Positions 27,608 through 50,056 are shown, numbered from the stretch's first letter. The stretch: 64,000 nucleotides of DNA from an uncultured Elusimicrobia bacterium (GCA_964484135.1 CAZAEL010000004.1:19164-83163); one strand, 5' to 3'. Notes: a model not told the origin generated them from the sequence alone. Numbers and translations are program-made.

Positions 27608-28840
27608 ATGCCACGCGCCAAACCCGCTGACGGCTCCCTGACCCCCGCGGAGGAGCTGGACCTGCTGCACAAGATCACGGACATCATCGGGTCCACCCTG
27701 GACCTCAAGACCATCCTGCAGGAGATCGTCTCCCTGGTGAGCCGGATGACCAAGGCCGACGCCTGCTTCCTGTACCTGCACGAGCCCTCCCAGCAGAGCC
27801 TGGTGCTCTCCGCCTCCAAGACGCCTCACCCGGGGGAGATCGGCTCCCTCCGGCTGAAGCTCGGGGAAGGCATCACCGGCTGGGTGGCCCAGAACCGCAA
27901 GCCCCTGGCCGTTCCGGAACGGGCCCACGAGGACCCGCGCTTCAAGTTCTTCCAGAACCTGCCCGAGGACAGGTACGAGGCCTTCCTGTCCGTGCCCATC
28001 CTGGCGAAGGACAAAGTCATCGGCGTGATCAACGTCCAGCACCGCAAGCCCTACGCCCACAGCGAGCGGGCCGTGAAGCTCCTGACCACCATCGCCCAGC
28101 AGGTGGGCGGCGCCATCGAGAACGCGCGGCTCTACGAGGAGACCAAGCGCAAGGCCCAGGCCATCCAGACCCTTTCCGCCGTGTCCCACACCGTGGCGTC
28201 GGACCGGTATCCCCAGGAGGTCCTGCAGTTGATCGTGTCCATGACGGCGTCCCTGCTGGGGTCCAAGATCTGCTCCGTCATGCTGCTGGACGACGACGGG
28301 AAGGAACTGCACATCGCCGCCACCCAGTCCCTGTCCGAGGCGTACCGCAACAAGCCCCCCATCAAGGTGGGCCAGAGCATCTCCGGCCTGGCCGTCCAGC
28401 AGAAGGCCCCCATCACGGTCCCGGACGTGCGCAAGGACAAGCGGTTCTTCGCGCCGGACATCGCCGCGGCCGAGGGGCTGGTGTCACTCCTTTCCGTCCC
28501 CATGCTTTTCAAGGACAAGGCCGTCGGCGTGATCAACACCTACACCGCGCACGAGCACGCCTTCAGCAAGGAGGACATCGCGGTCCTCCAGGCCGTGGCC
28601 AACCAGTGCGCCTCGGCCATCGTCCACACGCGCCTGCTCTCCGAGAAGCTGGCGGCCCAGGAGGCCCTGGAAACGCGCAAGCTGGTGGAACGGGCCAAGG
28701 GCGTGCTGATGAAGACCCGCGGGCTCTCCGAGCCGGAGGCCTTCCGGGAAATCCAAAAACAGAGCATGGACCGGCGCAAGACCATGAAGGAAATCGCCGA
28801 AGCCGTGCTGCTCGCCGCGGAACTGGGTGAAAAAAAATAA
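27608..28840 (+). CDS. One-component GAF-GAF-ANTAR RNA-binding antiterminator
   Basis: Two GAF domains (GEGITGWVAQ...EAFLSVPI...VIGVINVQ; GQSISGLAV...SLLSVPM...AVGVINTY) and a C-terminal ANTAR (LETRKLVERAKGVLM...GLSEPEAFREIQKQSMDRRKTMKEIAEAVL); no receiver domain. Confidence 0.92.
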   Translation: MPRAKPADGSLTPAEELDLLHKITDIIGSTLDLKTILQEIVSLVSRMTKADACFLYLHEPSQQSLVLSASKTPHPGEIGSLRLKLGEGITGWVAQNRKPLAVPERAHEDPRFKFFQNLPEDRYEAFLSVPILAKDKVIGVINVQHRKPYAHSERAVKLLTTIAQQVGGAIENARLYEETKRKAQAIQTLSAVSHTVASDRYPQEVLQLIVSMTASLLGSKICSVMLLDDDGKELHIAATQSLSEAYRNKPPIKVGQSISGLAVQQKAPITVPDVRKDKRFFAPDIAAAEGLVSLLSVPMLFKDKAVGVINTYTAHEHAFSKEDIAVLQAVANQCASAIVHTRLLSEKLAAQEALETRKLVERAKGVLMKTRGLSEPEAFREIQKQSMDRRKTMKEIAEAVLLAAELGEKK

Positions 28841-28846
28841 AAAACC

Positions 28847-28919
28847 GTGCTTCTGTGCTGCAGTGCTTCCGTTGAAAGCATTGAACCGCAGGACCGCAGC
28901 ACCCCCGCACGGCAGCACT
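28847..28919. repeat. Octamer-repeat palindromic element, copy 1
   Basis: GTGCTTCT GTGCTGCA GTGCTTCC ... GCAGGACC GCAGCACC CCCGCACG GCAGCACT. Confidence 0.75.
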
Positions 28920-28924
28920 TATCT

Positions 28925-30613
28925 ATGATCCGCCTGTCCCTCGCCCAGATCAACAGCACCGTCGGCGACCTGCCCGGCAATTTGGAGAAGGTCCTGGACC
29001 ACGCCCGGCGCGCCCGCGAAGAGGGGGCCGACCTGGTCCTCTTCCCGGAGCTCTGCCTGAGCGGGTACCCCCCGGAAGACCTCCTGCTGCAGCCCCGCTT
29101 CACGGCCGACAACGCCGCCGCCCTGGAAAAGGCGGCCAAAACCCTTCCGCGCGGCCTCGCCGCGCTCGTGGGCTTCGCCGAGGGCGCCCCGGGCCGGCTC
29201 TACAACGCCGCCGCCCTGGTCCTGGACGGGCGGGTGCGGGCCGTGTACCGCAAACAGCGCCTGCCCAACTACGGCGTCTTCGACGAACAACGCTACTTCG
29301 TCGCCGGGCGAAAGCCCCTGCTGTTCCGGGTCCGGGACGTCACGGCCGGCGTCACCGTCTGCGAAGACATCTGGGTCCCCCGCGGCCCGGCCCTGCAGGC
29401 GGCCCGGGCGGGCGCCCGCCTCGTCCTCAACCTGTCCGCCAGCCCGTACCACGCGGGCAAAAGCTCGGAGCGCCTGAAAACGCTGAAAGACCGCGTGCGG
29501 GAGACGGGCGCGGCCTTCGCGTACTGCAACGCGGTGGGCGGGCAGGACGAGCTGGTGTTCGACGGCGGCAGCCTGGTCCTGGACGGCCGGAACCGCCTCC
29601 TGGCGCGGGCGCCCCAGTTCGAGGAGGCCCTCCTCACCGTGGACCTGGACCTTCCGGCCGCGCGCAAGCCGCCGCGGGGGGCGCTGGCCCTTTCCCTGCC
29701 CGCCGCCCCTCCCGCGCCCCTTTCGCCTCCTTCGCGGACGTCCGCGCTCCGCGCGGAGCCGCTTCCGGAGCTGGAAGAAATATACACCGCCCTGGTCACG
29801 GGCACCCGGGACTATCTGCGCAAGAACGGATTCCAAAAAGCGGTGATCGGCCTGTCCGGCGGCATTGACTCCTCGCTGGTGGCCTGCGTGGCCGCGGACG
29901 CCCTGGGGAAAGACAACGTGACCGGGGTCACGCTCCCCTCGAAATTCAACTCCACGGAGACCCGCTCGGACGCCCGGCTCCTGGCCGAAAACCTGGGGAT
30001 CGCGTTCCACAGCGTGCCCATCCAGGGGATCGTGGACGAATGCCTGAAGGCCCTGAAACCCCTCTTCGGGGACAGGCCCCCCGACATCGCCGAAGAAAAC
30101 CTGCAGGCCCGCGTGCGGGGGCTGCTCCTCATGGCCCTGTCCAACAAGTTCGGCTGGATGGTGCTGACCACGGGGAACAAGTCCGAGACCTCCGTCGGGT
30201 ACTGCACCCTGTACGGCGACACCGCCGGCGGGTTCGCCGTGATCAAGGACATCCCCAAGACCCTGGTGTACCGGCTCTGCGAATGGCGCAACGAAAAGGC
30301 CGCGCGGGCGCCGATCCCCCGGAGCGTCTTCGACCGTCCGCCCACGGCCGAACTCCGGCCCCACCAGACGGACCAGGACTCCCTGCCGCCCTACGACCTC
30401 CTGGACCGGATCATCGCCTTGTACGTGGAACAGGACAGGGATCTTTCGGACATCGCCAAGCGCGGCGTGCCCCCGGAGACCGCGGCCAGGACGCTGCGGC
30501 TCATCGACGCCAGCGAACACAAGCGCCGCCAGGCCCCGCCGGGCGTCAAGATCACGCCCCGGGCCTTCGGCCGCGACCGCCGCATGCCGCTCACCAATAA
30601 ATACAAAGGATAG
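28925..30613 (+). CDS. nadE: Glutamine-dependent NAD+ synthetase
   Basis: Nitrilase-like domain with E-K-C triad (FPEL, YRKQ, VCEDIW) plus synthetase motifs GLSGGIDSS, ENLQARVRG, TTGNKSE and PPTAELRP.Q.D.DSLP; start MIRLS 28925. Confidence 0.95.
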   Translation: MIRLSLAQINSTVGDLPGNLEKVLDHARRAREEGADLVLFPELCLSGYPPEDLLLQPRFTADNAAALEKAAKTLPRGLAALVGFAEGAPGRLYNAAALVLDGRVRAVYRKQRLPNYGVFDEQRYFVAGRKPLLFRVRDVTAGVTVCEDIWVPRGPALQAARAGARLVLNLSASPYHAGKSSERLKTLKDRVRETGAAFAYCNAVGGQDELVFDGGSLVLDGRNRLLARAPQFEEALLTVDLDLPAARKPPRGALALSLPAAPPAPLSPPSRTSALRAEPLPELEEIYTALVTGTRDYLRKNGFQKAVIGLSGGIDSSLVACVAADALGKDNVTGVTLPSKFNSTETRSDARLLAENLGIAFHSVPIQGIVDECLKALKPLFGDRPPDIAEENLQARVRGLLLMALSNKFGWMVLTTGNKSETSVGYCTLYGDTAGGFAVIKDIPKTLVYRLCEWRNEKAARAPIPRSVFDRPPTAELRPHQTDQDSLPPYDLLDRIIALYVEQDRDLSDIAKRGVPPETAARTLRLIDASEHKRRQAPPGVKITPRAFGRDRRMPLTNKYKG

Positions 30614-30708
30614 TGCTGCCGTGCTTCCGTACCGCGGTTCCGCAGTTAAAAACATGAACGCGCAAACTCTTTTGCGGCAGCACCGCAGCACCCCCGCACT
30701 GAAGCACC
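30613..30708. repeat. Octamer-repeat palindromic element, copy 2
   Basis: GTGCTGCC GTGCTTCC GTACCGCG GTTCCGCA ... GCAGCACC GCAGCACC CCCGCACT GAAGCACC. Confidence 0.75.
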
Positions 30709-30715
30709 CCTGAGC

Positions 30716-31531: not shown

Positions 31532-31547
31532 CGAGAAAGGTCCTCTG

Positions 31548-32621
<1,074 letters not shown>

Positions 32622-32623
32622 CC

Positions 32624-33193: not shown

Positions 33194-33213
33194 TTGAATC
33201 TTCTACCCCAACC

Positions 33214-33563: not shown

Positions 33564-33565
33564 TC

Positions 33566-33595
33566 TTGACGCGGTACCGTCGGATGCGATAGAGT
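33566..33595 (+). promoter_or_regulatory. sigma70 promoter, probably leaderless cstA mRNA
   Basis: TTGACG, 18 nt, TAGAGT, 7 nt before ATG 33603; no SD. Confidence 0.5.
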
Positions 33596-33602
33596 TTTCT
33601 CC

Positions 33603-35270: not shown

Positions 35271-35274
35271 ACCC

Positions 35275-36941: not shown

Positions 36942-36970
36942 TTGACGAGGGCCGCTTTTTGTCCTATAGT
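36942..36970 (+). promoter_or_regulatory. sigma70 promoter
   Basis: TTGACG, 17 nt, TATAGT. Confidence 0.75.
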
Positions 36971-36984
36971 ACCTTCACAACAAC

Positions 36985-37031
36985 GGGCTAAGGCAGTCCT
37001 CCTCAAAGTTTACGAGGAGGGCTTTTTTTTT
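36985..37031 (+). promoter_or_regulatory. Leader attenuator (degenerate ANTAR-like hairpin overlapping an intrinsic terminator)
   Basis: GGGCT-AAGGC-AGTCC overlaps terminator AGTCCTCCTC..GAGGAGGGC-T9, downstream of the promoter and upstream of the APC gene. Confidence 0.55.
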
Positions 37032-37051: not shown

Positions 37052-39019
37052 ATGTTCGAAAAAATCAAAGAGCTGATCTTCGGCAGGCCCAAGAACCCCC
37101 TGGACCCCCGGGTGTTCCACAACATCTCCCTGGTGGCTTTCTTCGCCTGGGTGGGGCTGGGCGCGGACGGATTGTCCTCCTCCTGTTACGGCCCGGAGGA
37201 GGCCTTCCACGCCCTGGGCCCCTACACCCATTTGGCCATCCCCCTGGCCCTGGCCGTGGCCGCCACGGTCTTCATCCTCTCCGCCGCCTACTCCCAGATC
37301 ATCGAACTGTTCCCCTCGGGCGGGGGCGGGTACCTGGTGGCCTCCAAACTGATCGGTCCCTACTCGGGGCTCATGTCCGGCTGCGCCCTGCTGGTGGATT
37401 ACATCCTCACGATCGCCATCTCCGTGGCCGCGGGCGTGGACGCGGTCTTCAGCTTCCTGCCGCCGGGGCTCGTCTCCTGGAAGGTCCATGCCACCATCCT
37501 CTGCCTCCTGGTCCTCATGACCTTGAACCTGCGGGGCGTCAAGGAATCCATCCTGGTCCTTACGCCCATCTTCGTCGTGTTCCTGTTCACCCACGGAATA
37601 ACGATCTTTTACGGCATTTTTTCCCACGGGACGGAGCTGCCGGCGCTCGTGACGGACACGGTGGCGCAGACCCGGTCGGGCATCTCCGAAATCGGCTTTT
37701 TTGCCATGGCCGTGATCTTCCTGCGGGCCTTCTGTCTGGGCGGCGGCACCTTCACCGGCATCGAAGCCGTCTCCAACGGCCTGCAAATCCTGCGGGAGCC
37801 CCGCGTGGAGACCGGCAAGCGGACCATGGTCTACATGGCCGTGTCCCTGGCCTTCACCGCGGGCGGCATCCTGGTGAGCTACATCCTCAACGACGTCAGC
37901 CACGTGCCGGGCCAGACGTTGAACGCCACCCTGGTGCACAGGATCTCCGACGCCTGGCCCGGCGGGCATGTCTTTTTCCTGATCACCCTCCTGTCGGAAG
38001 GCGCCCTGCTGTTCGTGGCCGCCCAGGCGGGCTTTCTGGCGGGCCCCCGGGTCATGTCCAACATGGCGGTGGACCACTGGCTGCCCCGCCGCTTCACCAA
38101 CCTGTCGGACCGGCTCGTGATCAAGGACGGCGTCCTGGTCCTCGGGCTGGCCGCCCTGGCCATGATCCTCTACACCGGCGCCTCGGTGCGGATCCTGGTG
38201 GTCATGTACTCCATCAACGTGTTCCTGACGTTCACCTTTTCCCAATTCGGGGTGGCGCGCCATTGGTTCAAGTCCCGGGAACCCGGCTGGCTCAAAAAAC
38301 TGACCATCATGTCCGCGGGCCTGCTGGTGACGGTGGTCATCCTCACCGCCACGATCATGATCAAATTCACGGAAGGGGGATGGGTCACGCTGTCCGTCAC
38401 CGGGACCCTCATGATCTTCTGTCTCTGGGTCCATCGCCATTACGCGGACACGGCCAAGGCCCTCCGCCATTTGGACGACATCCTGACCAACATCCCCCCC
38501 CCTGCGGCCAAGCCGGAGGTTGCGGCCAAGTCCCCCTCCAAGCCCGCGGCCATCCTCATGGTCAACGGGTACAACGGCATGGGCATCCACTCTTTCCTGG
38601 CCATCCACCGTTTCTTTCCCGGCCATTTCAAAAATTTCATCTTCCTTTCGGTGGGGGTGATAGACTCGGACCGGTTCAAGGGCAAGGCCGAGATCCAGAA
38701 CCTGGAGGAGTCCATCCAGAAGGACCTGGACAAATACGTGCGCCTGGCCAACAGCATGGGGCTGTACGCCGAATCCCGCATGCTGCTGGAAACGGACGTG
38801 ATCGACGGGCTCGAAAAACTGTGCCAGCAGACGGCGGAGGAATGGCCCAAGAAGGTGTTTTTCACCGGACAGCTCACGTTCGAAGGAGAAACCTTCTGGA
38901 CCCGGTTCCTGCACAACCAAACGTCCTTCACCCTCCAGCGCCGGCTGATCTTCGACGGCCTGGAGACCGTGATCCTGCCCATCCGGGTGAGGCTGAACCA
39001 GGCGCCCCTGCCCAAATAA
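37052..39019 (+). CDS. APC-superfamily permease, YdaO/KimA-like
   Basis: GADGLSSSCYGPEEAF, GGGGYLVA, TGIEAVSNG and YSINVFLTFT motifs; about 12 TMs plus a cytoplasmic C-domain. Confidence 0.85.
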   Translation: MFEKIKELIFGRPKNPLDPRVFHNISLVAFFAWVGLGADGLSSSCYGPEEAFHALGPYTHLAIPLALAVAATVFILSAAYSQIIELFPSGGGGYLVASKLIGPYSGLMSGCALLVDYILTIAISVAAGVDAVFSFLPPGLVSWKVHATILCLLVLMTLNLRGVKESILVLTPIFVVFLFTHGITIFYGIFSHGTELPALVTDTVAQTRSGISEIGFFAMAVIFLRAFCLGGGTFTGIEAVSNGLQILREPRVETGKRTMVYMAVSLAFTAGGILVSYILNDVSHVPGQTLNATLVHRISDAWPGGHVFFLITLLSEGALLFVAAQAGFLAGPRVMSNMAVDHWLPRRFTNLSDRLVIKDGVLVLGLAALAMILYTGASVRILVVMYSINVFLTFTFSQFGVARHWFKSREPGWLKKLTIMSAGLLVTVVILTATIMIKFTEGGWVTLSVTGTLMIFCLWVHRHYADTAKALRHLDDILTNIPPPAAKPEVAAKSPSKPAAILMVNGYNGMGIHSFLAIHRFFPGHFKNFIFLSVGVIDSDRFKGKAEIQNLEESIQKDLDKYVRLANSMGLYAESRMLLETDVIDGLEKLCQQTAEEWPKKVFFTGQLTFEGETFWTRFLHNQTSFTLQRRLIFDGLETVILPIRVRLNQAPLPK

Positions 39020-39026: not shown

Positions 39027-39055
39027 TTGACACCCCGCGCCCCTTCTGGTAGGAT
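39027..39055 (+). promoter_or_regulatory. sigma70 promoter
   Basis: TTGACA, 17 nt, TAGGAT with TG extension. Confidence 0.8.
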
Positions 39056-39064
39056 GGGAAAGAA

Positions 39065-39153
39065 GGCACATCGTGGTGCCGTCAACGGGCCGGAGCACGA
39101 CGCCCGACGGACAAGGAAGTCCTCCTCATATGTCGCGACGAGGAGGATTTTTT
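39065..39153 (+). ncRNA. ANTAR-type dual-hexaloop leader with terminator
   Basis: P1 GGCAC-ATCGTG-GTGCC (39065-80); P2 GGAC-AAGGAA-GTCC (39109-22) overlapping terminator GTCCTCCTC..GAGGAGGA-T6. Confidence 0.8.
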
Positions 39154-39351
39154 ATGCCTTTCTGGATCCCCTGGCACACGGTTCCCGCCCTGGCGGCCTA
39201 TTTTTCGGACGAGGCCGCGGAAGAGGCCCCGGACCCCTGCGACCGCCCGCCGCCGCGGGGAGCCGGAACGGACGCGGCGCCGGACTTCCGGTTCTGGAAC
39301 AACTTCTTTGCGAGGAAATCCCATGAGCAGCCCCTCCGCCGATATTGTTGA
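39154..39351 (+). CDS. Possible 65-aa small protein (MPFWIPWHT...)
   Basis: GAGGAGG SD 7 nt before ATG 39154, buried in the terminator 3' arm; no recognisable motif. Confidence 0.3.
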   Translation: MPFWIPWHTVPALAAYFSDEAAEEAPDPCDRPPPRGAGTDAAPDFRFWNNFFARKSHEQPLRRYC

Positions 39352-41149
39352 GCTTTCCCCCGTCAAATACCTGCTGGGCTGCGCCGCGGCCGCCGCGGCC
39401 CTCCTCCTGATCGGGAAAATCCATCCCTTTCCGGCCTGGCTGGTGGCCGCGGAGGTCCTGGCCGCCGTCCTGGCCCTGTTCACCTTCGGCTCCATCAAGT
39501 ACCGTCTGGACAAAAACGCCCTCACGTACGGCGCCGCGCTCGTCATCGTCGCGACCTTCTGGGAAAGCTGGTGGAGCGGCTCGTCCCTGAAGTCGGCCCT
39601 GGCCGCCGGGGAATACGGCGCGCTCTGGGAATTCGCCCGGCACAATTTCCTGACCCTCCACGGACTGGACCGCCTCATCCACGCGGACACCATGCTGTTC
39701 ATCCTGGGGCTGACCTTCTTCGTGGCGGTCATCGCCCAGACGCGCCTCCTGGAAACCTCCAGCTTCGCGGTCCTGGACAAGCTCAAGGGCCGCGTGGTCC
39801 CGACCGTGGTCATCCTCACGGCGCTGGTGTCCGCGGCCTCCGGCGTCCTGGACGGCGTCTCCATGATCGGGCTCATGATCCGGACCCTGGTGATCATCCT
39901 GCTCCTGAGCGGGGCCGACAGGGCGGTCGTCGTTTACGCGGTCATGGTGTCAACGGTCGTGACCACGGTCTGCGGCATGTGGCTGGCGTACGGCGAGCCC
40001 CCCAACCTCATCATGAAAGCCAACCTCCACCCTTATCTGGACGACGCTTTTTTCCTGCGGTACTGCCTGCCCGCGGCCCTGGGGAGTTGGGCCATCGTGG
40101 CCTGGAACGTGGGACGGCGGCTGAAGGGCCGGAAAGTGGAGTTGTCGAAACTGGACATCCTGGACCGGCACGTGGCGGACGTGCGGTTCCTGCAGGCGTC
40201 CCGCCACGGGCAGGTGCTCACGCCCATCGGGTTCCTGGAAGGGAACAAAGAGGCGGTGGAAGGACACTACGAAGGGGTCCGAAAACGTCTCCTGGCCGGC
40301 GTGCCCCTGGGCGAGGCCCTGACCAATGAACGGGTCCCCAGGAGCGCGCGCCTGGAACTCATGGGCCGTTACCTGTCCGAGGACCTCGCCCAGACCGCGG
40401 ACGATTATTACGAACACGTGTACGGAAAGAACGACGGCCAGGCGGGCGAGTCCGCGGTGCGGCTGGGCCTGGCCCTGTCCCGCGTGCGGGGGCGGCGCGT
40501 CCTGGCCCAGCGGGCGGCGGCGCTGTCCTTCGTCCCCTTCATCGGGCTCCTCGTGGCCCACGCGGTCAACCACGATGTGCCGCTCTTTTTGGCCTCCTTC
40601 GCGGGGTTCGCGGCGGCCTTCCTGGGCATCGCGACTCTGCCCAAAACGCGGGGCCTGGCCCTGCGGGAGGCGGCCCATGAGTTCAAGGAGTACCTCTTCC
40701 TTTTGCCCCTCTTCCTGTCCATCACCCTGCTGCAGAAGACCGGCTTCTTCGGCCTGATCTCGGACCTCCTGCACCTGGGCATCGAGCGGCTGGGCGCCTC
40801 CCACGTGGCGTACGGCCAGTTCTGGTTCTGCACGGTGCTCTCCGCCCTCCTGGACAACAACGTGGTGGCGGACTTCGCGGGCCGGGCCCTCCAGGGCCTG
40901 AGCGTGAGCCTCCTCCACCTCTTCGCCATGGCCCAGATCGCGGGCTACGCCCTGGGCGGCTGCTGGACCCACATCGGCTCGGCCCAGTCCGTGGTGGCGT
41001 ATTCCTTCATCCAGCGGGAGATCGACGGGCGGTACACCCCCTTCCAGTGGATCAAGGCCATGACGCCGATCGTTCTGGAGATCGCCATTTGGATCAGCGT
41101 GGTCGTGTACGTGGAAGGGTGGCTCTTCCAAAAACTGCACATCCAATAA
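39323..41149 (+). CDS. IT-superfamily (NhaD/ArsB/SLC13-like) transporter with soluble insert
   Basis: ASGVLDGVS, GEPPNLI, SALLDNN and LGGCWTHIGSAQSVV repeat motifs; about 12 TMs; GAGGA RBS before ATG 39323. Confidence 0.75.
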   Translation: MSSPSADIVELSPVKYLLGCAAAAAALLLIGKIHPFPAWLVAAEVLAAVLALFTFGSIKYRLDKNALTYGAALVIVATFWESWWSGSSLKSALAAGEYGALWEFARHNFLTLHGLDRLIHADTMLFILGLTFFVAVIAQTRLLETSSFAVLDKLKGRVVPTVVILTALVSAASGVLDGVSMIGLMIRTLVIILLLSGADRAVVVYAVMVSTVVTTVCGMWLAYGEPPNLIMKANLHPYLDDAFFLRYCLPAALGSWAIVAWNVGRRLKGRKVELSKLDILDRHVADVRFLQASRHGQVLTPIGFLEGNKEAVEGHYEGVRKRLLAGVPLGEALTNERVPRSARLELMGRYLSEDLAQTADDYYEHVYGKNDGQAGESAVRLGLALSRVRGRRVLAQRAAALSFVPFIGLLVAHAVNHDVPLFLASFAGFAAAFLGIATLPKTRGLALREAAHEFKEYLFLLPLFLSITLLQKTGFFGLISDLLHLGIERLGASHVAYGQFWFCTVLSALLDNNVVADFAGRALQGLSVSLLHLFAMAQIAGYALGGCWTHIGSAQSVVAYSFIQREIDGRYTPFQWIKAMTPIVLEIAIWISVVVYVEGWLFQKLHIQ

Positions 41150-41176
41150 AAAAGCCGGCGGTTTTCGGCCGCCGGC
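41147..41176 (-). terminator. Intrinsic terminator between convergent genes
   Basis: A-run, then GCCGGCGG / CCGCCGGC 8-bp stem. Confidence 0.6.
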
Positions 41177-41214
41177 GCCCTTTGCCGTTCCTCCCCTCTC
41201 CCAAAAACGGACCC

Positions 41215-42684
41215 CTACCCCCTGGAGGACTCCTTGCCGGTCAACAACGAACGGACCCGGTCCAGCGTCCTGTCGTTGATCAACACCCAGAGGACATCCC
41301 CCTCCTCCAAAACCGTGTTCCCCCCCGGCACGATGAAAGCCTCCCCGCGGCACACCAGCGCCACCCGGCTTTCCTCCGGAAAATCCAGCTCCATGAGCGA
41401 CTTGCCGGCGATCTTGGCGCCGTAGGGCACGATGAAATCCTCCAGCCTCATGTCCACGCCTTCCAGGTCATCCATCTCCAGGGGAGACCGTCGGCGCGGC
41501 GCCAGGGGCACGTCCACGCCCAGCAGCCGCGCCACCCAGGGGATGGACGTCCCCTGGATCAGGGCCGACGTCAGGACGATGAAGAACACCAGGTCGAAGA
41601 TGACGTCCGCCTCCGGGACGCCCGCCAAACGGGGGAAGGTGGCCAGCACGATGGGGACGGCGCCGCGCAGCCCCACCCAGGCCACCATCAGCTTCTCGCG
41701 GACGCTCATCCCGGAGAACGACAGGGACAGGAACACGCTGGCCGGGCGGGCCGCGACGATCAGGAAGGCCGAGGCCAGGAGCCCCGGTCCCGCCACCGCG
41801 CCGAGCCGTTTGGGAAAGACCAAAAGCCCCAGGGCCAAAAACATGGCGATCTGCATGAGCCAGGCCAGCCCGTCGTGGAACCGCCCCAGGCTGCGCCGGT
41901 GCAGGAACCGGCTGTTTCCCAGCACCAGGCCGGCCACGTACACCGCCAAAAACCCGTTGCCCCCCACGGACGAAACCGCGCCGTAGATCAAGAGGACCAG
42001 GGCCATGGTGAGCGGCGGGTACAGGCCCTCGTGCTCCAGACGCATCCGGTTGACCAGGAGGACCGCGCCTTTCCCCAGCGCCCAGCCCGCGGCCAAACCC
42101 ACGGACATCTGGAGGACGAAAGAAAGGACCATCCCGCCCCAGCCGGCTTCCGGCCGCGTCATGAGCCCCAGGAAGGCGGTGGTCAGGAACACGGCCATGG
42201 GGTCGTTGCTGCCGGATTCCAGCTCCAACAGGGGCTTGAGCCGCCCCTTGAGGCTCACGTTTTTGGACCGGAGCACGGAGAAGACCGCGGCCGCGTCCGT
42301 GGAAGCCACGATGGAGCCCAAGAGGAACCCTTCCAGCCAGGAAAACCCCAGGGCGAACACGGCGAAGGCCCCCACCAGGAGCGCCGACACCAGGACTCCG
42401 CCGCTGGCCAGAGACAGCCCCTGCCAAAGGACGGGCCGCACGCTCCGCCAGTCCGTCTCCAGGCCGCCGGCGAACAGGATGTAGCACAACGCGACCACGC
42501 CCAGGAACTGGGCCTGCCAGGGGTCGTTGAAATAGATGCCTCCGGGACCGTCGGACCCCGCCAGCATCCCGATGGCCAAAAACAAGAGCAGCGCCGGCAC
42601 GCCGAGGCGGCCGGAGGCCTTGCTGGCGACGACGCTCAGGGCCACCAGCGCCGCCACCGCCAGCAGGATATGCTCGATGGGCAT
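41215..42684 (-). CDS. K+/H+ antiporter NhaP2 (CvrA) family
   Basis: GMLAGSDGPGGI, ASTDAAAVFS, LELESGSNDP and WVGLRGAVPIVLA motifs plus C-terminal TrkA_C; start 42684 or 42693. Confidence 0.92.
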   Translation of the reverse strand: MPIEHILLAVAALVALSVVASKASGRLGVPALLLFLAIGMLAGSDGPGGIYFNDPWQAQFLGVVALCYILFAGGLETDWRSVRPVLWQGLSLASGGVLVSALLVGAFAVFALGFSWLEGFLLGSIVASTDAAAVFSVLRSKNVSLKGRLKPLLELESGSNDPMAVFLTTAFLGLMTRPEAGWGGMVLSFVLQMSVGLAAGWALGKGAVLLVNRMRLEHEGLYPPLTMALVLLIYGAVSSVGGNGFLAVYVAGLVLGNSRFLHRRSLGRFHDGLAWLMQIAMFLALGLLVFPKRLGAVAGPGLLASAFLIVAARPASVFLSLSFSGMSVREKLMVAWVGLRGAVPIVLATFPRLAGVPEADVIFDLVFFIVLTSALIQGTSIPWVARLLGVDVPLAPRRRSPLEMDDLEGVDMRLEDFIVPYGAKIAGKSLMELDFPEESRVALVCRGEAFIVPGGNTVLEEGDVLWVLINDRTLDRVRSLLTGKESSRG

Positions 42685-42767
42685 CGTCGTCATGCCATAT
42701 TTCTACACTGTTTGCCGCGCGATTGCAAACGGCGCGAAAAAATCGGGCGCGGCCCGGCATTTTTTCC

Positions 42768-42796
42768 TTGACATAAAAACGGAGCCGGTATATAAT
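42768..42796 (+). promoter_or_regulatory. sigma70 promoter of amtB1-glnK1
   Basis: TTGACA, 17 nt, TATAAT: perfect consensus. Confidence 0.88.
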
Positions 42797-42802
42797 AGAC
42801 GC

Positions 42803-42969
42803 GAGTACAGAGTAGTACTCCTTATCATATCAGGACGCCGACGTCCTCCTTGAGGCTCATGCCCGGGGAGGATTTTTTATTTTGTCGGCGGCCGCTGGGC
42901 CGTTCCCGAGACGAGGGCGTCTCGACTCTTAGTTTGGGGGCTAAGAAGCGAGGCGCCTCTTTTGTTTTT
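42803..42969 (+). ncRNA. ANTAR-type leader with two tandem terminators
   Basis: P1 GAGTAC-AGAGTA-GTACTC; P2 GGAC-GCCGAC-GTCC overlapping terminator 42843-42883; third hexaloop CGAGAC-GAGGGC-GTCTCG overlapping terminator 42913-42969. Confidence 0.8.
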
Positions 42970-43036
42970 CGGAGAGGACGCTCCCGCCGCCCACACGGGG
43001 GGTCAAACGGGCTCAAATTCACTAAGGAGGAAATCC

Positions 43037-44572
43037 ATGTCACGCTTCAAGAAAAGATGGCTGGGCGGGATACTGCTCTCGCTCATCGCCGTGGGGGTTC
43101 TGACCCCCGCGTTGTTCGCAGAAGAAACGGTCGCGGCCGCTGCGGAAGCCGCGGGACCGAGCCTCGCCGACCAGGTGGCTTCCCTCACCCAGCAGGTGGC
43201 GGACCGGAAAGTGGCGGCCGACACCCTCTGGGTGCTGGTCACCGCGTTCCTGGTGTTCTGGATGAACGCGGGCTTCGCCCTGGTGGAATCGGGCATGTGC
43301 CGCGCCAAGAATGCGGTCAACATCCTGTCCAAGAACTTCATCGTGTTCGCCTGCTCCTCCATCGCGTTCTACGTGCTGGGCTGGGGCCTGATGTTCGGGG
43401 ACGGGAACGGCTTCGTCGGCACCCAGGGCCTTTGGTTCTTGGGCGGGGCGGACAACAGCCCGGCCACCGGCGACGCGTACCGGGGCGTGTATTCGTCCAT
43501 CGCCTGGACGGGCGTGCCCCTCGGCGCCAAGTTCTTCTTCCAATTGGTGTTCGCGGGGACCGCCGCGACCATCGTGTCCGGCTGCGTGGCGGAACGCATC
43601 AAGTACATCAGCTTCATCCTGTTCTCCTTCCTGCTGGTGGGCATCACCTATCCCGTCATCGGCCACTGGATCTGGGGCGGCGGCTGGCTGGCCCAAAAGG
43701 GCTTCTGGGACTTCGCCGGCTCCACCGTGGTCCACACCGTGGGCGGCGTGGCGGGCCTGGCGGGCATCCTGCTCCTGGGTCCCCGCATCGGCAAGTACCG
43801 TCCGGACGGCACCCCCAACGCCATCCCGGGCCACAACATGACCTCGGCGACGCTGGGCTGCCTCATCCTGTGGCTGGGCTGGTTCGGGTTCAACCCCGGC
43901 TCCACCATGGCGGCCGACCCCGGCGCCATCTCCCACATCCTGAACACCACCAACCTGGCGGCCGCGGCCGGCCTGTTGACGGCCACCCTCACCGCCTGGA
44001 TCGTGATGGGCAAGCCGGACCTGGGCATGACCATCAACGGCTGCCTGGCGGGCCTGGTGGCCATCACGGCCCCCTGCGCCTTCGTGAGCCTGCCGGCCTC
44101 CATCGTCATTGGCGGCATCGGCGGCGTCCTGGTGGTCTTCGCGGTGCTCTTCTGGGACAAGCTCAAGATCGACGACCCCGTGGGCGCCCTGGCCGTGCAC
44201 CTGGTGAACGGCATCTGGGGCACCCTGTCCGTGGGCCTCTTCGCCAAGGACAAGATCACGGGCGTGGCCACCGGCAACGGCCTCTTCAACGGCGGCGGCT
44301 TCGGCCTGCTGACCACCCAGGTCATCGGGTCCTTGAGCGCCATCGCCTTCACCCTGGTGACCGCCGTCATCTTCTGGTCCGTCATCAAAGCCGTCCTCGG
44401 CATGCGGGTGTCCCGCGACGAGGAAATCCGCGGCCTGGACATTGACGAGCACGGCATGGAGGCCTACGCCGGCTTCCAGATCTACCTGACGGAATACGGC
44501 CTCAGCCCCGTCTCGGGCGGCAACGGCGGCTCGGCGCCCAAGCTCGAAAAAGAGCTGGCCGGGAGGAAATAA
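43037..44572 (+). CDS. amtB: Ammonium transporter
   Basis: AAGGAGG RBS, signal peptide, [24 protein letters not shown] and AVHLVNG (both pore His present). Confidence 0.96.
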
Positions 44573-44574
44573 CC

Positions 44575-44916
44575 ATGAAAATGATCATCGCCATCATCCA
44601 GCCCCACAAGATCGCGGACGTCAAGAAGGCCCTGGACGACGCCCAGATCCACCTCATGACGGTCTCCAACGTCCTCGGGGCGGGGCGGCAGAAGGGGTAC
44701 GAAGAGAGCTACCGCGGCGCGAAGTACGAGATCAACCTCCTCAAGAAGGTCCGTCTCGACATCGCGGTGAACGACGACTACGTGGACGCCGCCATCTCGG
44801 CCATCTCCAGATCGGCCAAGACCGGCAACATCGGGGACGGCAAGATCTTCGTCATGCCCCTCGAGGAAGTCGTCCGCATCCGCACCAACGAGCGCGGCAA
44901 GGTGGCCATCGGCTGA
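44575..44916 (+). CDS. glnK: P-II nitrogen regulator (Tyr51 present)
   Basis: GAGRQKG...YRGAKY T-loop, [19 protein letters not shown]; follows amtB. Confidence 0.95.
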
Positions 44917-44943
44917 ACAGGCCCTGACCTCCGCCGTTCATTC

Positions 44944-44983
44944 AAGGGCGCGGGAGAGGAATAACCTCTCCCGCGCCCTTTCG
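44944..44983 (+). terminator. Intrinsic terminator after glnK1
   Basis: 16-bp perfect stem AAGGGCGCGGGAGAGG / CCTCTCCCGCGCCCTT with AATAA loop; short T tail. Confidence 0.7.
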
Positions 44984-44984
44984 C

Positions 44985-45014
44985 TTGACAAGCTTTCGGG
45001 ACCTATGTTATAGT
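44985..45014 (+). promoter_or_regulatory. sigma70 promoter of amtB2-glnK2
   Basis: TTGACA, 18 nt, TG-T-TATAGT. Confidence 0.8.
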
Positions 45015-45022
45015 CCCAGCCC

Positions 45023-45141
45023 GGACACAGTGTCGTGTCCGCCAAAGCAACCCTCAACCAAGAAGTCTCTTCTCAAGAAGCCTGTCCGGCCTCTCTCCGG
45101 GGTGTGAGGGGCCGGCCGTTGCTCGAGACAGAGCCGTCTCG
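45023..45141 (+). ncRNA. ANTAR-type dual-hexaloop leader with large structured spacer
   Basis: P1 GGACAC-AGTGTC-GTGTCC (45023-40); spacer closed by GCAAC/GTTGC (45047-45122); P2 CGAGAC-AGAGCC-GTCTCG (45124-41). Confidence 0.7.
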
Positions 45142-45262
45142 CCTAAAACAAAGCCCGCGGGGGTCCTTCCCCGGCGGGCGCGTTCCCCATCACAGAACCG
45201 TCATAACGATGTCCGGGCCCGGCCCGGGCGTCCTTACTTCCTATAAGGGGGTCTTGGGTATT

Positions 45263-46630
<1,368 letters not shown>

Positions 46631-46643
46631 AAAAGAGGACGCC

Positions 46644-46985
46644 ATGAAATACATCGTCGCCATCATTCAACCCGACAAGCTCGACGAGGTCCTGGAGGAG
46701 CTGGAGAAAAAGGAGATCCACCTGGTCACCGTGTCCAGCGTCATGGGGCGCGGCCGGCAGAAGGGCATCTCCCAGGTGTACCGCAGCCACAAGGAGGCGG
46801 GCAGCCTGCTGAAGAAGACCAAGCTGGAGATCGCGGTCAACGACGAGTTCGTGAAGCCCGCCATGGAAGCCATCTACAAGGGCGGCCACACCGGCAACGT
46901 GGGGGACGGCAAGATCTTCGTTCTGGACCTGAAGGAATGCCAGCGGATCAGCAACGGCGAGACCGGCGGCCCCGCCATCGGCTGA
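46644..46985 (+). CDS. glnK: P-II family protein (Tyr51 absent)
   Basis: GRGRQKG, YRSHKE T-loop, TGNVGDGKIFV; follows amtB2. Confidence 0.92.
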   Translation: MKYIVAIIQPDKLDEVLEELEKKEIHLVTVSSVMGRGRQKGISQVYRSHKEAGSLLKKTKLEIAVNDEFVKPAMEAIYKGGHTGNVGDGKIFVLDLKECQRISNGETGGPAIG

Positions 46986-47052
46986 AAACATGCCTTCGGC
47001 CCTCTTCCCGACGGAAAACCGGACCACGGCCGTGCCCCCGGCGATTTTTTTC

Positions 47053-47081
47053 TTGACAAAAAAACCGGGGCGTGCTAAAGT
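47053..47081 (+). promoter_or_regulatory. sigma70 promoter of glnA
   Basis: TTGACA, 17 nt, TAAAGT with TG extension. Confidence 0.82.
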
Positions 47082-47089
47082 ATTGTCAA

Positions 47090-47185
47090 GCACAAGGTCG
47101 TGCGCATTCCATAATCCGGTTGTCCACGGAAGCGGGACGATGACGTCCTCCTCAAAGCTGTCTTTGGGGAGGACTTTTTGTTTTT
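47090..47185 (+). ncRNA. ANTAR-type dual-hexaloop leader with terminator
   Basis: P1 GCAC-AAGGTC-GTGC (47090-103); P2 GGAC-GATGAC-GTCC (47135-48) overlapping terminator GTCCTCCTCAAAG-CTGT-CTTTGGGGAGGAC-TTTTTGTTTTT. Confidence 0.82.
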
Positions 47186-47268
47186 CAGGGGGGAACGGCC
47201 GCGCGAGCGGCCTCTAAATCGGGGAGAGGCGAAAAAACTCTCTTTATCCAAACGCAAGGAGCCTCGTC

Positions 47269-48762
47269 ATGGAAGCCATAAAGGAAAGATCGGTCGTCAA
47301 GAGCGTCGCCAGCGCCAACGGCGGGCGCGCCGCCAAGCCCAAGAACGCCAAGGAAGCCATCGAGCTGGCCCGCAAGTCCGGGGTCAAGATCGTGGACTAC
47401 AAGTTCATGGACCTGGTGGGGACGCTGCAGCACATCTCCTACTCCGTGGAAAAACTGAAGGAAAGCGTTTTCGAGGAGGGCATCGGCTTCGACGGCTCCA
47501 GCATCCGGGGCTTCCAGGCCATCAACGAGTCCGACATGCTGCTCATGCCGGACCCGACCACCGCCTTCATCGACCCGGTCCTCAAGGTCCCGACCATCTC
47601 CTTCCTCTGCAACGTGAAGGACCCGGTGACCGGCAAGGGTTACAAAAAGGACCCGCGGAGCATCGCCCAGGCCGCCGAGGAATACCTGATCAAGACCGGC
47701 ATCGCCACCGAGAGCTGGTGGGGCCCGGAGGCGGAGTTCTTCGTGTTCGACAACGTCCGCTTCGACGTGGGCCAGCGGTCCTCCTTCTACGAGGTGGACT
47801 CCGAGGAAGGCATCTGGAACGCCGGCAAGAACGGCGGGGAAGAGGCCAACCTGGGGTACAAGATCCGCAACAAGGAGGGGTATTTCCCCACCCCGCCCAT
47901 GGACACCCTGCAGGACTTCCGCTCCGAGGCCATCCTCCGGATGATGGAGGCGGGTCTGGACATCGACCTGCACCACCACGAGGTGGCCACCGCGGGCCAG
48001 GGCGAGATCGGCGTGGGCGTCCGCACCCTCACCTCCGCCGCCGACCAGATGGCCCTCTACAAGTACATCCTGAAAAACGTGGGGCGCGAACACGGCAAGA
48101 CGGTGACCTTCATGCCCAAGCCCCTGTACGGCGACAACGGCACCGGCATGCACACCCACCAGTCCCTGTGGAAGAGCGGCAAGCCCCTGTTCCACGACCC
48201 CAAGGGGTACGGCTGCGTGTCCCAATTGGCGCTGTGGTACATCGGCGGCCTCTTGAAGCACGCCCCGGCCCTCTGCGCCATCTGCAACTCCACCACGAAC
48301 TCCTACCGGCGCCTGGTGCCGGGCTACGAAGCCCCCACCAACCTGGCCTATTCGGCCCGGAACCGGTCGGCCGCGGTGCGCATCCCCATGTATTCCAACG
48401 AGCCCAAGCAGAAACGCATCGAGTACCGCCCGCCGGACGCGGCCTCCAACCCGTACCTGGCCTTCGCCGCGCTGCTCATGGCCGGCTTGGACGGCATCCA
48501 GAACAAGATCGACCCGGGCAAGCCCTTCGAGGCGGACATCTTCGAGCTCCACGGCGAGGAGGCCAAGGCCATCCCGCAGGTGCCGGGCTCCCTGGAAGAG
48601 GCCCTGGACGCGCTGGAGAAGGACAACGCCTTCCTGACAAAGGGCGGCGTCTTCTCCAAGGAGTTCATCGAGACCTGGATCGACTACAAGCGGAAGAAGG
48701 AGCACGACTTCGTGCGGCTCCGGCCCCATCCGGCGGAGTTCTTCCTGTACTTCGACTGCTGA
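47269..48762 (+). CDS. glnA: Glutamine synthetase type I
   Basis: [47 protein letters not shown] and RNRSA.VRIP motifs. Confidence 0.97.
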
Positions 48763-48808
48763 TCCGCTCAGAGCCGTAACCCCGCGGAGATCCCCGCGGG
48801 CGCAGGGT

Positions 48809-48890
48809 CCGCACAAGGTTGTGCGGAAAAGATCCGAACGAAGGCGTTCGTCGCTTCTCATGAAGGGGACGAACGCCTTCGTTGTTTTTT
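48809..48890 (+). ncRNA. ANTAR-type dual-hexaloop leader with terminator (between glnA and porin)
   Basis: P1 CCGCAC-AAGGTT-GTGCGG; 8-nt linker; P2 CGAAC-GAAGGC-GTTCG embedded in the 5' arm of a 20-bp terminator (48838-48882) plus TGTTTTTT. Confidence 0.85.
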
Positions 48891-48910
48891 AGCAAAAACA
48901 GGGGTCTTTC

Positions 48911-50056
48911 ATGGCCCACAAAATGAAAGGGGAGGTTCACATCATGAGGTTAAACAAAATCAACGCGAAGCTGTTGAGGGCTCTGGGAGCGCTCCTGTTG
49001 CCCGCGGCCCTGGCCAGCCAGGGGTTCGCCGAGGGGCCGTCCATCGGCGGCTTCGTGGACTTCGGGTACAACTACAACTTCAACGGCATGGCCGCCAACA
49101 CGCTCCGGTCGTTCGACAGCAAATCCAACAGCTTCACGCTGCAGAACGCCGAGGTCGTGGTGTCGGGCAAATCCGACAAGGACGTGGCCTATCGGGTGGA
49201 CCTGGATTACGGGTTCGACGCCACCAACACGAACTACCTGAACAACAACGCCGGCGACGAGTTCGACATCCAGCAGGCCTTCATCACCGTCCCTTGCCCC
49301 TTGACGGGCGGGGCCTTTACGGCCGGAAAATTCGTCACGCTGCACGGGGCCGAAGTGATCGAGGCCAAGGACAACTTCAACACGTCCCGCGGGTTCCTGT
49401 TCAACTACGCCATCCCGCTCCACCACACGGGCGTGAAGTACGACAAGGCCTTCGGGGACTTGGCCCTGACGGGCGCCGTGGTCAACGGCTGGGACAACCT
49501 GTATGAAAACAACAAGGGCAAAACGTTCCACGGCATGGCCGCCTACACCTTCTCCCCGAAGCTGTTCGCCAGCCTGGGAGGCACCTACGGCCCGGAACAG
49601 GCTTCCCCCACGGCGGCCGGCGTCAGCACGGAAAAAAACAGCCGCGGCCTGGTGGACGCCCTGGTGAAGGCCATGCCCACGGACAAACTCACCCTGATCG
49701 CCAACTGGGACTGGGGCGTGGAGGAGGGCCTCACCCCGGCCGGGACCGACACCACCCAAAACTGGGCGGGCCTGGCGTTGCACGCCAATTACATGCTCAC
49801 CGACGTCTACTCCGCGGCTCTGCGCTGGGAGACCTTTGACGACGAAGGGTCCCGCACCGCGGCCTTGACGCCGGCGGCCGTGAACGGTCAAGTGCTCCAC
49901 TCTCTGACCGCCACCCTCCAGCACAAGATGAACGACGTGATCACGCGTCTGGAGTTCCGGCAGGACACGTCCTCCAAAAAAGTCTTTGTGGACGACAAGG
50001 GCATGCCGGACGACAGCCAGAGCACCGTCGGGTTGCAGTGGATCTACGCCTTCTGA
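48911..50056 (+). CDS. Outer-membrane beta-barrel porin (putative bbp2/OmpL-like)
   Basis: Signal peptide; GGFVDFGYNYNFN, GKFVTLHGAEVI...N.N.SR.FLF..AIP..HTG motifs; C-terminal YAF; start 48911 or 48944. Confidence 0.8.
   Translation: MAHKMKGEVHIMRLNKINAKLLRALGALLLPAALASQGFAEGPSIGGFVDFGYNYNFNGMAANTLRSFDSKSNSFTLQNAEVVVSGKSDKDVAYRVDLDYGFDATNTNYLNNNAGDEFDIQQAFITVPCPLTGGAFTAGKFVTLHGAEVIEAKDNFNTSRGFLFNYAIPLHHTGVKYDKAFGDLALTGAVVNGWDNLYENNKGKTFHGMAAYTFSPKLFASLGGTYGPEQASPTAAGVSTEKNSRGLVDALVKAMPTDKLTLIANWDWGVEEGLTPAGTDTTQNWAGLALHANYMLTDVYSAALRWETFDDEGSRTAALTPAAVNGQVLHSLTATLQHKMNDVITRLEFRQDTSSKKVFVDDKGMPDDSQSTVGLQWIYAF

Follow-up and report, generated by a model that had tools for sequence, protein, structure and literature searches.

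ANTAR-domain proteins that act on hairpins with six-nucleotide loops to oppose a transcription terminator constitute a class of mechanism that is already known, being represented by EutV, NasR, AmiR and GnfR. The dual-hexaloop ANTAR target has been defined experimentally and an ANTAR dimer is needed (PMC3369931). In the eut leaders the two hairpins, P1 and P2, are separated by 5-12 nucleotides (nt) and shortening or lengthening of this linker abolishes the action of EutV (PMC3369931, PMC8934654); a single hexaloop has been reported as the minimal ANTAR site (PMC8934654). Ramesh et al. 2012 predicted ANTAR RNAs with overlapping terminators upstream of genes for PII, an ammonium transporter, nitrite reductase and glutamine/glutamate synthesis (PMC3369931). 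No GAF-ANTAR protein has been characterised according to PMC3369931 and PMC7496416, the former stating the same for PAS-ANTAR proteins, and for the one-component GAF-ANTAR class no signal or targets have been known so far. Here we describe a 64,000-nt stretch of DNA (the window; positions are counted from its first letter) from an uncultured Elusimicrobia bacterium (GCA_964484135.1, CAZAEL010000004.1:19164-83163; lineage Elusimicrobiota, GC ~66%), which encodes a one-component GAF-GAF-ANTAR protein and a set of ammonium transport and glutamine synthesis genes. We consider it probable, from the sequence evidence set out below, that these genes belong to an RNA-level nitrogen-assimilation regulon of ANTAR-type attenuators, with the GAF-GAF-ANTAR protein (27608-28840) as the antiterminator. 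An initial annotation of the window had arrived at this interpretation, which appears to be largely supported by independent comparative evidence and overstated in parts.

Attenuator leaders in the window

The genes and leaders concerned are listed below. Gene calls were checked with Pfam and NCBIfam, and the P1 and P2 hairpins were read from the sequence.

27608-28840, plus strand: GAF-GAF-ANTAR one-component protein, candidate antiterminator, 410 amino acids (aa) (Pfam, two GAF domains and ANTAR)
28847-30613, plus strand: nadE, glutamine-dependent NAD+ synthetase (Pfam CN_hydrolase and NAD_synthase; NCBIfam PRK13981, 728 bits)
36942-37031, plus strand: leader of the APC permease, a sixth and degenerate leader; promoter TTGACG-17-TATAGT; terminator GTCCTCCTC...GAGGAGGGC-T9
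37052-39019, plus strand: APC-family permease (Pfam AA_permease_2)
39027-39153, plus strand: leader of the ion-transporter (IT) gene; promoter 39027-39055; P1 GGCAC-ATCGTG-GTGCC, 39065-39080; P2 GGAC-AAGGAA-GTCC, 39109-39122; terminator 39120-39147 with T6 at 39148-39153
39323-41149, plus strand: IT superfamily, CitMHS-like permease (Pfam CitMHS)
42768-42969, plus strand: amtB1 leader with tandem attenuators; promoter 42768-42796; P1 GAGTAC-AGAGTA-GTACTC, 42803-42820; P2 GGAC-GCCGAC-GTCC, 42833-42846; terminator T1, 42844-42872 with T6 (folding); single hexaloop hairpin P3 CGAGAC-GAGGGC-GTCTCG, 42907-42924; terminator T2, 42915-42958 with CTTTTGTTTTT (folding)
43037-44572, plus strand: amtB1 (Pfam Ammonium_transp; start codon examined separately)
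44575-44916, plus strand: glnK1 (Pfam P-II)
44985-45262, plus strand: amtB2 leader; promoter 44985-45014; P1 CGGACAC-AGTGTC-GTGTCCG, 45022-45041; P2 CGAGAC-AGAGCC-GTCTCG, 45124-45141, 82 nt downstream of P1
45263-46630, plus strand: amtB2 (Pfam; start codon examined separately)
46644-46985, plus strand: glnK2 (Pfam)
47053-47179, plus strand: glnA leader; promoter 47053-47081; P1 GCAC-AAGGTC-GTGC, 47090-47103; P2 GGAC-GATGAC-GTCC, 47135-47148; terminator 47145-47174 with T5
47269-48762, plus strand: glnA, glutamine synthetase type I (Pfam; TIGR00653, 637 bits)
48808-48890, plus strand: glnA-porin intercistronic attenuator without a promoter of its own; P1 TCCGCAC-AAGGTT-GTGCGGA, 48808-48827; P2 CGAAC-GAAGGC-GTTCG, 48835-48850, within the 5' arm of the terminator; terminator 48837-48883 with T6
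48911-50056, plus strand: BBP2/OmpL-like beta-barrel porin (Pfam BBP2)

The initial annotation had described two short hexaloop stems in each of five leaders, those of the IT transporter, amtB1, amtB2, glnA and the porin, and all of these hairpins and loops are found in place. Folding also confirms that P2 overlaps a U-tailed terminator in four of the five. RNAfold predicts P1 together with the terminator as the minimum-free-energy (MFE) structure of the IT, amtB1, glnA and porin leaders (z-scores between -2.2 and -6.3, the latter for the porin attenuator), and in the same four leaders P2 can form in place of the terminator's 5' arm. In the amtB1 leader this occurs twice, as a second attenuator, absent from the initial list, follows the first in series and the loop and 3' arm of P3 make up the 5' arm of T2. 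This single-hairpin unit fits the single-hexaloop minimal ANTAR site (PMC8934654). An A-C...G-U closure is common to P1, P2 and P3, and the five P2 loops of the window all have G at position 4. The longer of the P1-P2 linkers in the window hold hairpins of their own, as judged by folding. In the amtB2 leader a U-tailed terminator was sought between 45022 and 45262 and none was found. Its ortholog in a relative (L013) has P1 (ATCGAC), a gap of 83 nt and P2 (AAAGAC), likewise without a terminator. A conserved helix sequestering the ribosome-binding site of amtB2 was sought in the two orthologous leaders available and only P1 and P2 were common to them; MAFFT gave no alignment of these leaders outside P1/P2.

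A promoter scan of 36.8-50.3 kb returned exactly five sigma70-like promoters, all on the plus strand and each 7-10 nt before the first leader hairpin. Four of them, ahead of the IT transporter, amtB1, amtB2 and glnA, had been named initially and the fifth lies ahead of the APC permease. The same scan gave no promoter ahead of the porin, as the initial annotation had noted, which fits read-through from glnA; the porin ortholog of L013 has its own promoter together with P1, P2 and the terminator. No match to the sigma54 -24/-12 element (TGGCAC-N5-TTGCW, at most two mismatches) was present in any of the six leaders, and the window as a whole contains 15 matches versus 25.7 expected.

The APC-permease leader, which the initial list also lacked, holds only a P2-like hairpin with a pentaloop and no P1, and scores 11.7 bits (E 0.27) with the covariance model R1. 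The element GGCUAAGG just upstream and the TCCTCCTC terminator are common to this leader and its L013 ortholog. The APC permease probably belongs to the regulon, and its leader may have degenerated or be read in a different way. With R1, the IT leader (a training sequence) scores 58.4 bits and the porin attenuator 38.4 bits, and a scan of the window revealed no further strong copy, the best non-training matches being one of 16 bits in a coding region (51975-52005, minus strand) and the APC leader.

Looser descriptions of the motif were discarded as evidence. Single A..G.. hexaloop hairpins are too common (57 in the window) and a loose dual-hairpin scan gave 18 matches versus 5.9 +/- 2.9 in shuffled sequences, again too common to carry weight. 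A strict descriptor that requires the AC...GT closing pairs finds only these leaders on either strand of the 64 kb, with six pairs versus none in 300 dinucleotide shuffles. The strict descriptor was derived post hoc, and the comparative evidence is the stronger and independent support.

Conservation of the RNA element

Another 20 or more attenuators in which P1, P2 and terminator are arranged alike were identified in 11 Elusimicrobia metagenome-assembled genomes (MAGs) and in Nitrospira. DNA-pattern scans covered 185,579 genomes, one per species. The P1+P2 pattern occurred in 118 stretches, only nine of which had a promoter and a terminator, all nine in Elusimicrobia; the other 109 were mostly chance coding matches in GC-rich actinobacteria. 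The P2+terminator pattern (GGAC-N3-G-N2-GTCCTCC...GGAGGATTTT) proved specific and gave 25 stretches (16 of them in Elusimicrobia MAGs and one in a Nitrospira MAG, the latter with the complete P1/P2/terminator); the remaining matches were due to chance or ordinary terminators. Searching through the encoded proteins recovered orthologous leaders of glnA (L016), amtB1 including P3/T2 (L014), the porin (L013) and a GAF-sigma54 activator gene (L007). Orthologous glnA leaders are present in L016, L073 and L122 and a leader of glutamine synthetase type III (GS-III) in L170, and the tandem amtB1-type layout recurs in L014, L047, L085, L113, L161 and the Nitrospira-type contig L178. The genes behind the attenuators include amtB in many cases, glnA type I, GS-III, PII with ferredoxin-nitrite reductase (nirA), an APC permease fused to PII, BBP2 and OprO/P-type porins, an EAL protein, a PMT_2 membrane protein, GAF-sigma54 activators and a short GAF-ANTAR protein. 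The leaders are, as the initial annotation had proposed, dual-hexaloop attenuators of the ANTAR type, and they are conserved ahead of nitrogen genes in the 11 Elusimicrobia MAGs and Nitrospira.

We curated 24 elements from the window, its relatives and Nitrospira, in which P1 was located by AC-N6-GT and a stem with the loop left unconstrained. G at position 4 of the P1 loop is found in 24/24, and position 1 is always a purine (A in 19, G in 5). The G at position 4 of P2 was imposed by the collection patterns, whereas position 1 of P2 was not, and it too is always a purine. The rule of A1/G4 put forward initially thus holds for G4 throughout, but for position 1 it has to be widened to a purine, given G1 in 5/24 P1 loops. 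P1-P2 linkers in the 24 elements range from 0 to 31 nt, with a median of 11.5. In the MAFFT alignment the outer P1 pairs 11-24 and 12-23 show four and six double compensatory changes, respectively, and 99.5% of the cells of P1 are paired versus 31-55% when the partners are slid.

These results bear on the explanation that the hairpins are not protein sites at all, but plain or riboswitch-like attenuators, or 5' stabilising stem-loops with leaky terminators, whose likeness to ANTAR loops is incidental. The 57 single hexaloop hairpins, common by chance in a GC-rich window, and the conservation of P2 and the terminator in sequence rather than through covariation are what such an explanation can draw on. 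We regard it as highly improbable, as the independently located P1 hairpins keep G4 and a purine at position 1 in every case while their stems vary and covary, P1, P2 and P3 have the same AC/GU closing pairs, and the layout is that of the experimentally defined ANTAR target (PMC3369931). Furthermore, Rfam gave no matches at gathering thresholds in the whole window and nothing relevant at E <= 1 in 36.8-50.3 kb, and an ANTAR gene co-occurs with the elements and adjoins them.

R1 scans of 10 kb on each side of the regulator gene found no copy in any Elusimicrobia locus but L007, and scans of porin loci of other phyla found no attenuator. BBP2 porin homologs adjoin amtB/glnK/glnA in Elusimicrobia, Nitrospirota, Acidobacteriota and Thermodesulfovibrionales, and the porin-amtB loci of Thermodesulfovibrionales and other Nitrospirota MAGs, reached via the porin, carry sigma54 -24/-12 promoters. 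In three of these (L017 ~5100-5400, L021 ~2400-2650 and L028 ~9650-9870) a sigma54-type promoter (TGGCAC-N5-TTGGCA-like) stands ahead of the porin, which is also preceded by a small conserved open reading frame (ORF) of ~70 aa ("...REEIINALRECNWVMAQAARKLGITERMIGYKIKKYG...") that resembles a stand-alone Fis-type helix-turn-helix. Separately, in the amtB leader of L113 (~900-935, minus strand) the P3 5' arm GAGAC has two potential partners, a GTCTC upstream of it (palindrome CGTCTCGGAGACG) and its usual one downstream, and a three-way alternative folding is possible there.

The GAF-GAF-ANTAR protein as candidate regulator

The ANTAR domain of the candidate regulator is C-terminal (residues 350-401; Pfam PF03861, 80 bits versus a cut-off of 27.3) and the PDB matches of this part are Rv1626, NasR and EutV. 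Its gene has a plain promoter (TTCGAC-17-TATAAT) and no attenuator upstream. A hairpin within the ORF (28570-28589, GGAGGAC-ATCGCG-GTCCTCC, seven base pairs with an A1/G4 hexaloop) was considered as an autoregulatory site and rejected as chance because the RNA fold is not preserved among 15 orthologs; it tracks the KEDIAVLQ codons. The protein shares 63-80% identity with proteins from ten Elusimicrobia MAGs and its family comprises more than 7,800 matches, none of them functionally named. In the window nadE starts 7 nt past the ANTAR gene, and nadE lies directly past it in 20/20 loci examined, in Elusimicrobia and beyond (L177 was left out of this count, as its contig ends just past the ANTAR gene). 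Orthologs were recovered in five of the 11 attenuator-carrying MAGs.

In three Nitrospira-type contigs the regulator gene, encoding orthologs of ~60% identity, lies within 0.1-3 kb of attenuators. In Nitrospira sp. Kam-Ns4a (L171) the regulator gene is separated from nadE-amtB-glnK-glnD by an intergenic space that holds a sigma70 promoter, P1 (GGGAGAC-AACGAT-GTTTCCC), P2 (GGAC-AATGAC-GTCC) and a terminator, and glnA lies further on past glnD; this attenuator, a non-training sequence, scores 35 bits (E 1.8e-8) with R1. In L178 the regulator is followed by nadE, a DUF1646/CitMHS transporter, tandem attenuators, a BBP2 porin, two amtB genes, glnK and glnD, so that the tandem attenuators lie 3 kb downstream of the regulator in a gene set essentially equal to that of the window. 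In L179 an attenuator directly past nadE precedes a GAF-sigma54 activator. Therefore, a second phylum also has the regulator gene in physical linkage with the cis-elements. Taken as a whole, our analysis shows how the RNA is built, that it is conserved and covaries, which genes make up the regulon, and that regulator and targets are linked in the genomes of two phyla. The GAF-GAF-ANTAR protein, already singled out initially, is the best candidate for the regulator, being encoded by the only ANTAR gene of the window, paired with nadE throughout and adjacent to the attenuators in the Nitrospira-type contigs.

No NtrB/C, GlnR, sigma54 or second ANTAR gene was found among the ORFs scanned in the 64-kb window, but two relatives encode a short GAF-ANTAR paralog. 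That of L155 (GFS_2647, 241 aa) stands directly behind a P1/P2/terminator leader and that of L161 (fen_1173, 262 aa) comes at the end of an operon under attenuator control (APC-PII, PII, BBP2 porin). More than one ANTAR protein can, then, exist in this clade, and it is conceivable that the attenuators are acted upon by another ANTAR protein encoded outside the window, either such a short paralog or a REC-ANTAR response regulator, with the GAF-GAF-ANTAR protein beside nadE having other targets or sitting only atop a cascade. The visibility of only 64 kb of the genome leaves room for this, as does the position of the short genes behind the very attenuators in question. However, both MAGs also carry the long form, which is present in every relative recovered and is the ANTAR form beside the attenuators in the Nitrospira-type contigs. 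The short form is rare (about six clusters versus hundreds of two-GAF forms among the top matches) and shares 49-62% identity with the GAF2-ANTAR portion of the long form, which suggests a lineage-specific derivative, acting perhaps as an amplifier. We therefore judge action by another ANTAR protein to be unlikely and retain the GAF-GAF-ANTAR protein as the candidate.

In the operon of L161 (88-5219, minus strand) the ortholog of the APC permease of the window carries a PII domain at its C-terminus, an unusual transporter-PII fusion, and stands behind a full attenuator; the other PII of this operon is free. In L007, an Elusimicrobia relative (10002-11029), and in the Nitrospira-type L179 (13119-14760) the same attenuator precedes a gene for a GAF-sigma54 enhancer-binding protein, which suggests an ANTAR-to-sigma54 cascade in these two. 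The initial view, that the ANTAR system does the work of NtrBC/sigma54, needs qualifying in the light of these two activator genes: the ANTAR system may stand above sigma54 control, which would then be neither simply replaced nor absent.

Sensor domains and the possible signal

GAF1 (approximately residues 16-175) has its best PDB matches in the PtsP GAF structures 3ci6 (2e-23) and 3trc, followed by Nlh1 (4g3k), and its best partial matches in NCBIfam are PtsP (PRK11061, positions 5-178, 6.8e-37) and NifA (TIGR01817, positions 3-169, 5.7e-31); the scores are far under the full-length cut-offs of PtsP and NifA and denote similarity at the level of the domain only. The GAF domain of NifA binds 2-oxoglutarate (2-OG) and contacts PII, and the GAFs of PtsP and NifA are the two that are known for reading glutamine/2-OG status. 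GAF2 is most similar to the GAF domains of cGMP-phosphodiesterases (5w10, 1e-14), and the tandem-GAF region (residues 19-345) aligns with the tandem GAFs of the phosphodiesterases PDE5/6. The latter are dimers. This likeness fits the need for an ANTAR dimer (PMC3369931), and the GAF-GAF-ANTAR protein probably dimerises via its PDE-like tandem GAFs. The GAF domain of PtsP (EI-Ntr) binds glutamine and 2-OG and reports nitrogen status (PMC13104625). From these matches, GAF1 is most likely the domain that reads the signal, with glutamine/2-OG as a plausible ligand class.

The protein might also antiterminate without sensing glutamine or 2-OG directly, its state being set through contact with PII (GlnK) or through some different ligand, for instance a cyclic nucleotide bound at the PDE-like GAF2, in parallel to AmiC-AmiR, NasS-NasT and PII-NifA. 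Two glnK genes within the window regulon and PII/GlnD genes in the Nitrospira operons would supply the partner, the GAF of NifA (the second-best match of GAF1) is a known site of PII contact, and the resemblance of GAF2 to cGMP-phosphodiesterase GAFs points to a possible nucleotide ligand. We nevertheless consider this explanation somewhat unlikely, as the best match of GAF1 is the PtsP GAF, a direct binder of metabolites (PMC13104625), and nadE is the only partner gene conserved beside the regulator.

Proposed model

We propose a series of steps by which the GAF-GAF-ANTAR protein could control the regulon. The IT transporter, amtB1-glnK1 and glnA would each be transcribed from a constitutive-looking sigma70 promoter, and the porin would be reached via read-through from glnA. 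The first few nucleotides of the transcript would fold into P1, and by default the MFE fold downstream would be the intrinsic terminator; the alternative fold would be P2, the 3' arm of which is the start of the terminator 5' arm. The hexaloops of P1 and P2 (R-N-N-G-N-N, closed by A-C...G-U) would constitute the ANTAR-binding signature. The GAF-GAF-ANTAR protein would be expressed together with nadE from its unattenuated promoter and, under nitrogen limitation, would bind the loops and keep P2 closed, so that the terminator would be blocked and RNA polymerase would read into the genes. The activating signal, received via GAF1, would be high 2-OG and/or low glutamine, by analogy with PtsP/EI-Ntr and NifA, and the second attenuator in series (P3/T2) should sharpen the response of amtB1. 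In this model the binding of protein to RNA, the direction of the response and the ligand are what we infer. Antitermination of the whole set, as claimed initially, is compatible with the terminators of the IT, amtB1, glnA and porin leaders but may not extend to amtB2, which is without an intrinsic terminator.

Several observations speak against this model. P2 of the amtB2 leader has no terminator with which to compete. Position 1 of the P2 loops in the window is the canonical A in only two of the five and G in three. The P1-P2 linkers in the window are 7, 12, 28 and 31 nt long, and 82 nt in amtB2; the longer of these exceed the 5-12 nt of the eut leaders. The sequences of P2 (GGAC/GTCC) and of the terminator (TCCTCC/GGAGGA) hardly vary and offer little covariation evidence. 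The regulator gene of the window lies 8-20 kb from its proposed targets, its count as the sole ANTAR gene covers only 64 kb of the genome, such that other ANTAR proteins (e.g. REC-ANTAR) are possible elsewhere, and the two short GAF-ANTAR genes stand behind the same attenuator as the targets. Finally, similarity of a GAF domain does not establish its ligand, and on that similarity regulation through GlnK binding is equally possible.

A wider proposal, which we advance tentatively and with less than even confidence, is that the GAF-GAF-ANTAR/nadE module could be the master nitrogen-status regulator of Elusimicrobia and Nitrospira, a further paradigm beside NtrBC, GlnR/TnrA, NtcA and AmtR, with one cytoplasmic protein sensing 2-OG/glutamine via a PtsP/NifA-like GAF domain and acting purely at the RNA level via single and tandem hexaloop attenuators. 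If true, its targets would comprise ammonium uptake, glutamine synthetases of types I and III, nitrite reduction, outer-membrane porins and NAD synthesis and, in some lineages, also a downstream GAF-sigma54 activator. Nitrospira includes environmentally important nitrite oxidisers, and culturable nitrifiers (Nitrospira with the same module) could serve as the experimental system. The locus and its relatives provide the GAF-ANTAR class with a testable assignment, namely an RNA motif, a regulon (amtB-glnK, glnA/GS-III, nirA, porins, transporters and nadE) and a plausible ligand class, which, if confirmed, would explain the control of ammonium assimilation in these lineages. The tandem attenuators and the terminator-less amtB2 leader also bear on the proposal of the single hexaloop as a minimal site.

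Other features of the window

One further gene call within the region was revised. An ORF at 41047-42771 (plus strand), considered as a transporter-side gene, is spurious, as it has no Pfam match and is overlapped by the true gene at this site:

41215-42693, minus strand: Na+/H+ exchanger (Pfam)

A 65-codon ORF (MPFWIPWHTVPALAAYF..., 39154-39351) begins directly past the terminator of the IT leader and overlaps the IT start codon; its GC content at third codon positions is 0.79 versus 0.85-0.95 in the adjoining genes, and its coding status is putative. Between the porin and an EAL gene (50056-50235) there is one hairpin that resembles a terminator, besides two long ones rich in GC (50100-50165 and 50176-50222), none of the ANTAR type; the EAL gene of the relative L153, unlike that of the window, sits behind a P2/terminator leader. 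Genes for succinyl-CoA synthetase and a 2-oxoacid:ferredoxin oxidoreductase pair, enzymes which act around 2-OG, are located 10-15 kb upstream of the regulator (11870-14051, minus strand, and 15731-18615, plus strand), and no attenuator was found near these genes (11870-18615).

Comparison with known systems

The leaders of the window resemble the eut leaders of Enterococcus faecalis, controlled by EutV/EutW (PMC3369931, PMC8934654), in having two small hexaloop hairpins with conserved positions 1 and 4 and conserved closing pairs, a P2 that overlaps the 5' arm of an intrinsic terminator, and several attenuators per regulon, including an intercistronic one. Unlike EutV/EutW, the regulator has a pair of GAF domains in place of a receiver domain or kinase, the loops begin with either A or G, the targets are genes of ammonium and glutamine assimilation instead of ethanolamine genes, and there are tandem attenuators in which the second unit is a single hexaloop hairpin. 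In GnfK/GnfR of Geobacter sulfurreducens (PMC2995071), as in the proposed system, an ANTAR protein lifts the early termination of transcription in leaders of nitrogen genes, glnK and amtB among them, when nitrogen is limiting. However, GnfR is a phosphorylated response regulator downstream of sigma54/GnfLM promoters and a linear motif (CAGGCAANGGCGCC) is given as its target (PMC2995071), whereas the window has sigma70-type promoters and a one-component GAF-GAF protein. NasR of Klebsiella oxytoca (PMC7496416), a NIT-ANTAR protein, is likewise a one-component ANTAR regulator of nitrogen genes, in which the ligand domain gates RNA binding at a hexaloop leader; its NIT domain binds nitrate/nitrite and it serves a single operon (nasF), in contrast to the tandem GAF and the general ammonium-assimilation regulon proposed here. 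The best sequence matches of GAF1 are the N-terminal GAF domains of PtsP and NifA, but the output of PtsP is phosphotransfer and that of NifA a sigma54 AAA+ activator, whereas here it would be an RNA-binding ANTAR domain.

As in the predictions of Ramesh et al., e.g. for Desulfotomaculum acetoxidans and Pelobacter carbinolicus (PMC3369931), there are many attenuators per genome and they precede nitrogen genes. The initial claim of novelty was therefore too strong, since ANTAR RNAs ahead of PII, amtB and glutamine synthetase genes had been predicted in other phyla (PMC3369931). The phyla differ, however, and no GAF-ANTAR regulator was linked to the RNAs there; a search of the papers available to us found none linking ANTAR with Nitrospira or Elusimicrobia. 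What is new in comparison with those predictions is the regulator family, the linkage to nadE and the adjacency to targets in Nitrospira. Our analysis thus provides a candidate assignment of the GAF-GAF-ANTAR family to a role in nitrogen antitermination, with a conserved nadE pairing, as a module that appears to extend across phyla and to combine sigma70 promoters with tandem attenuators.

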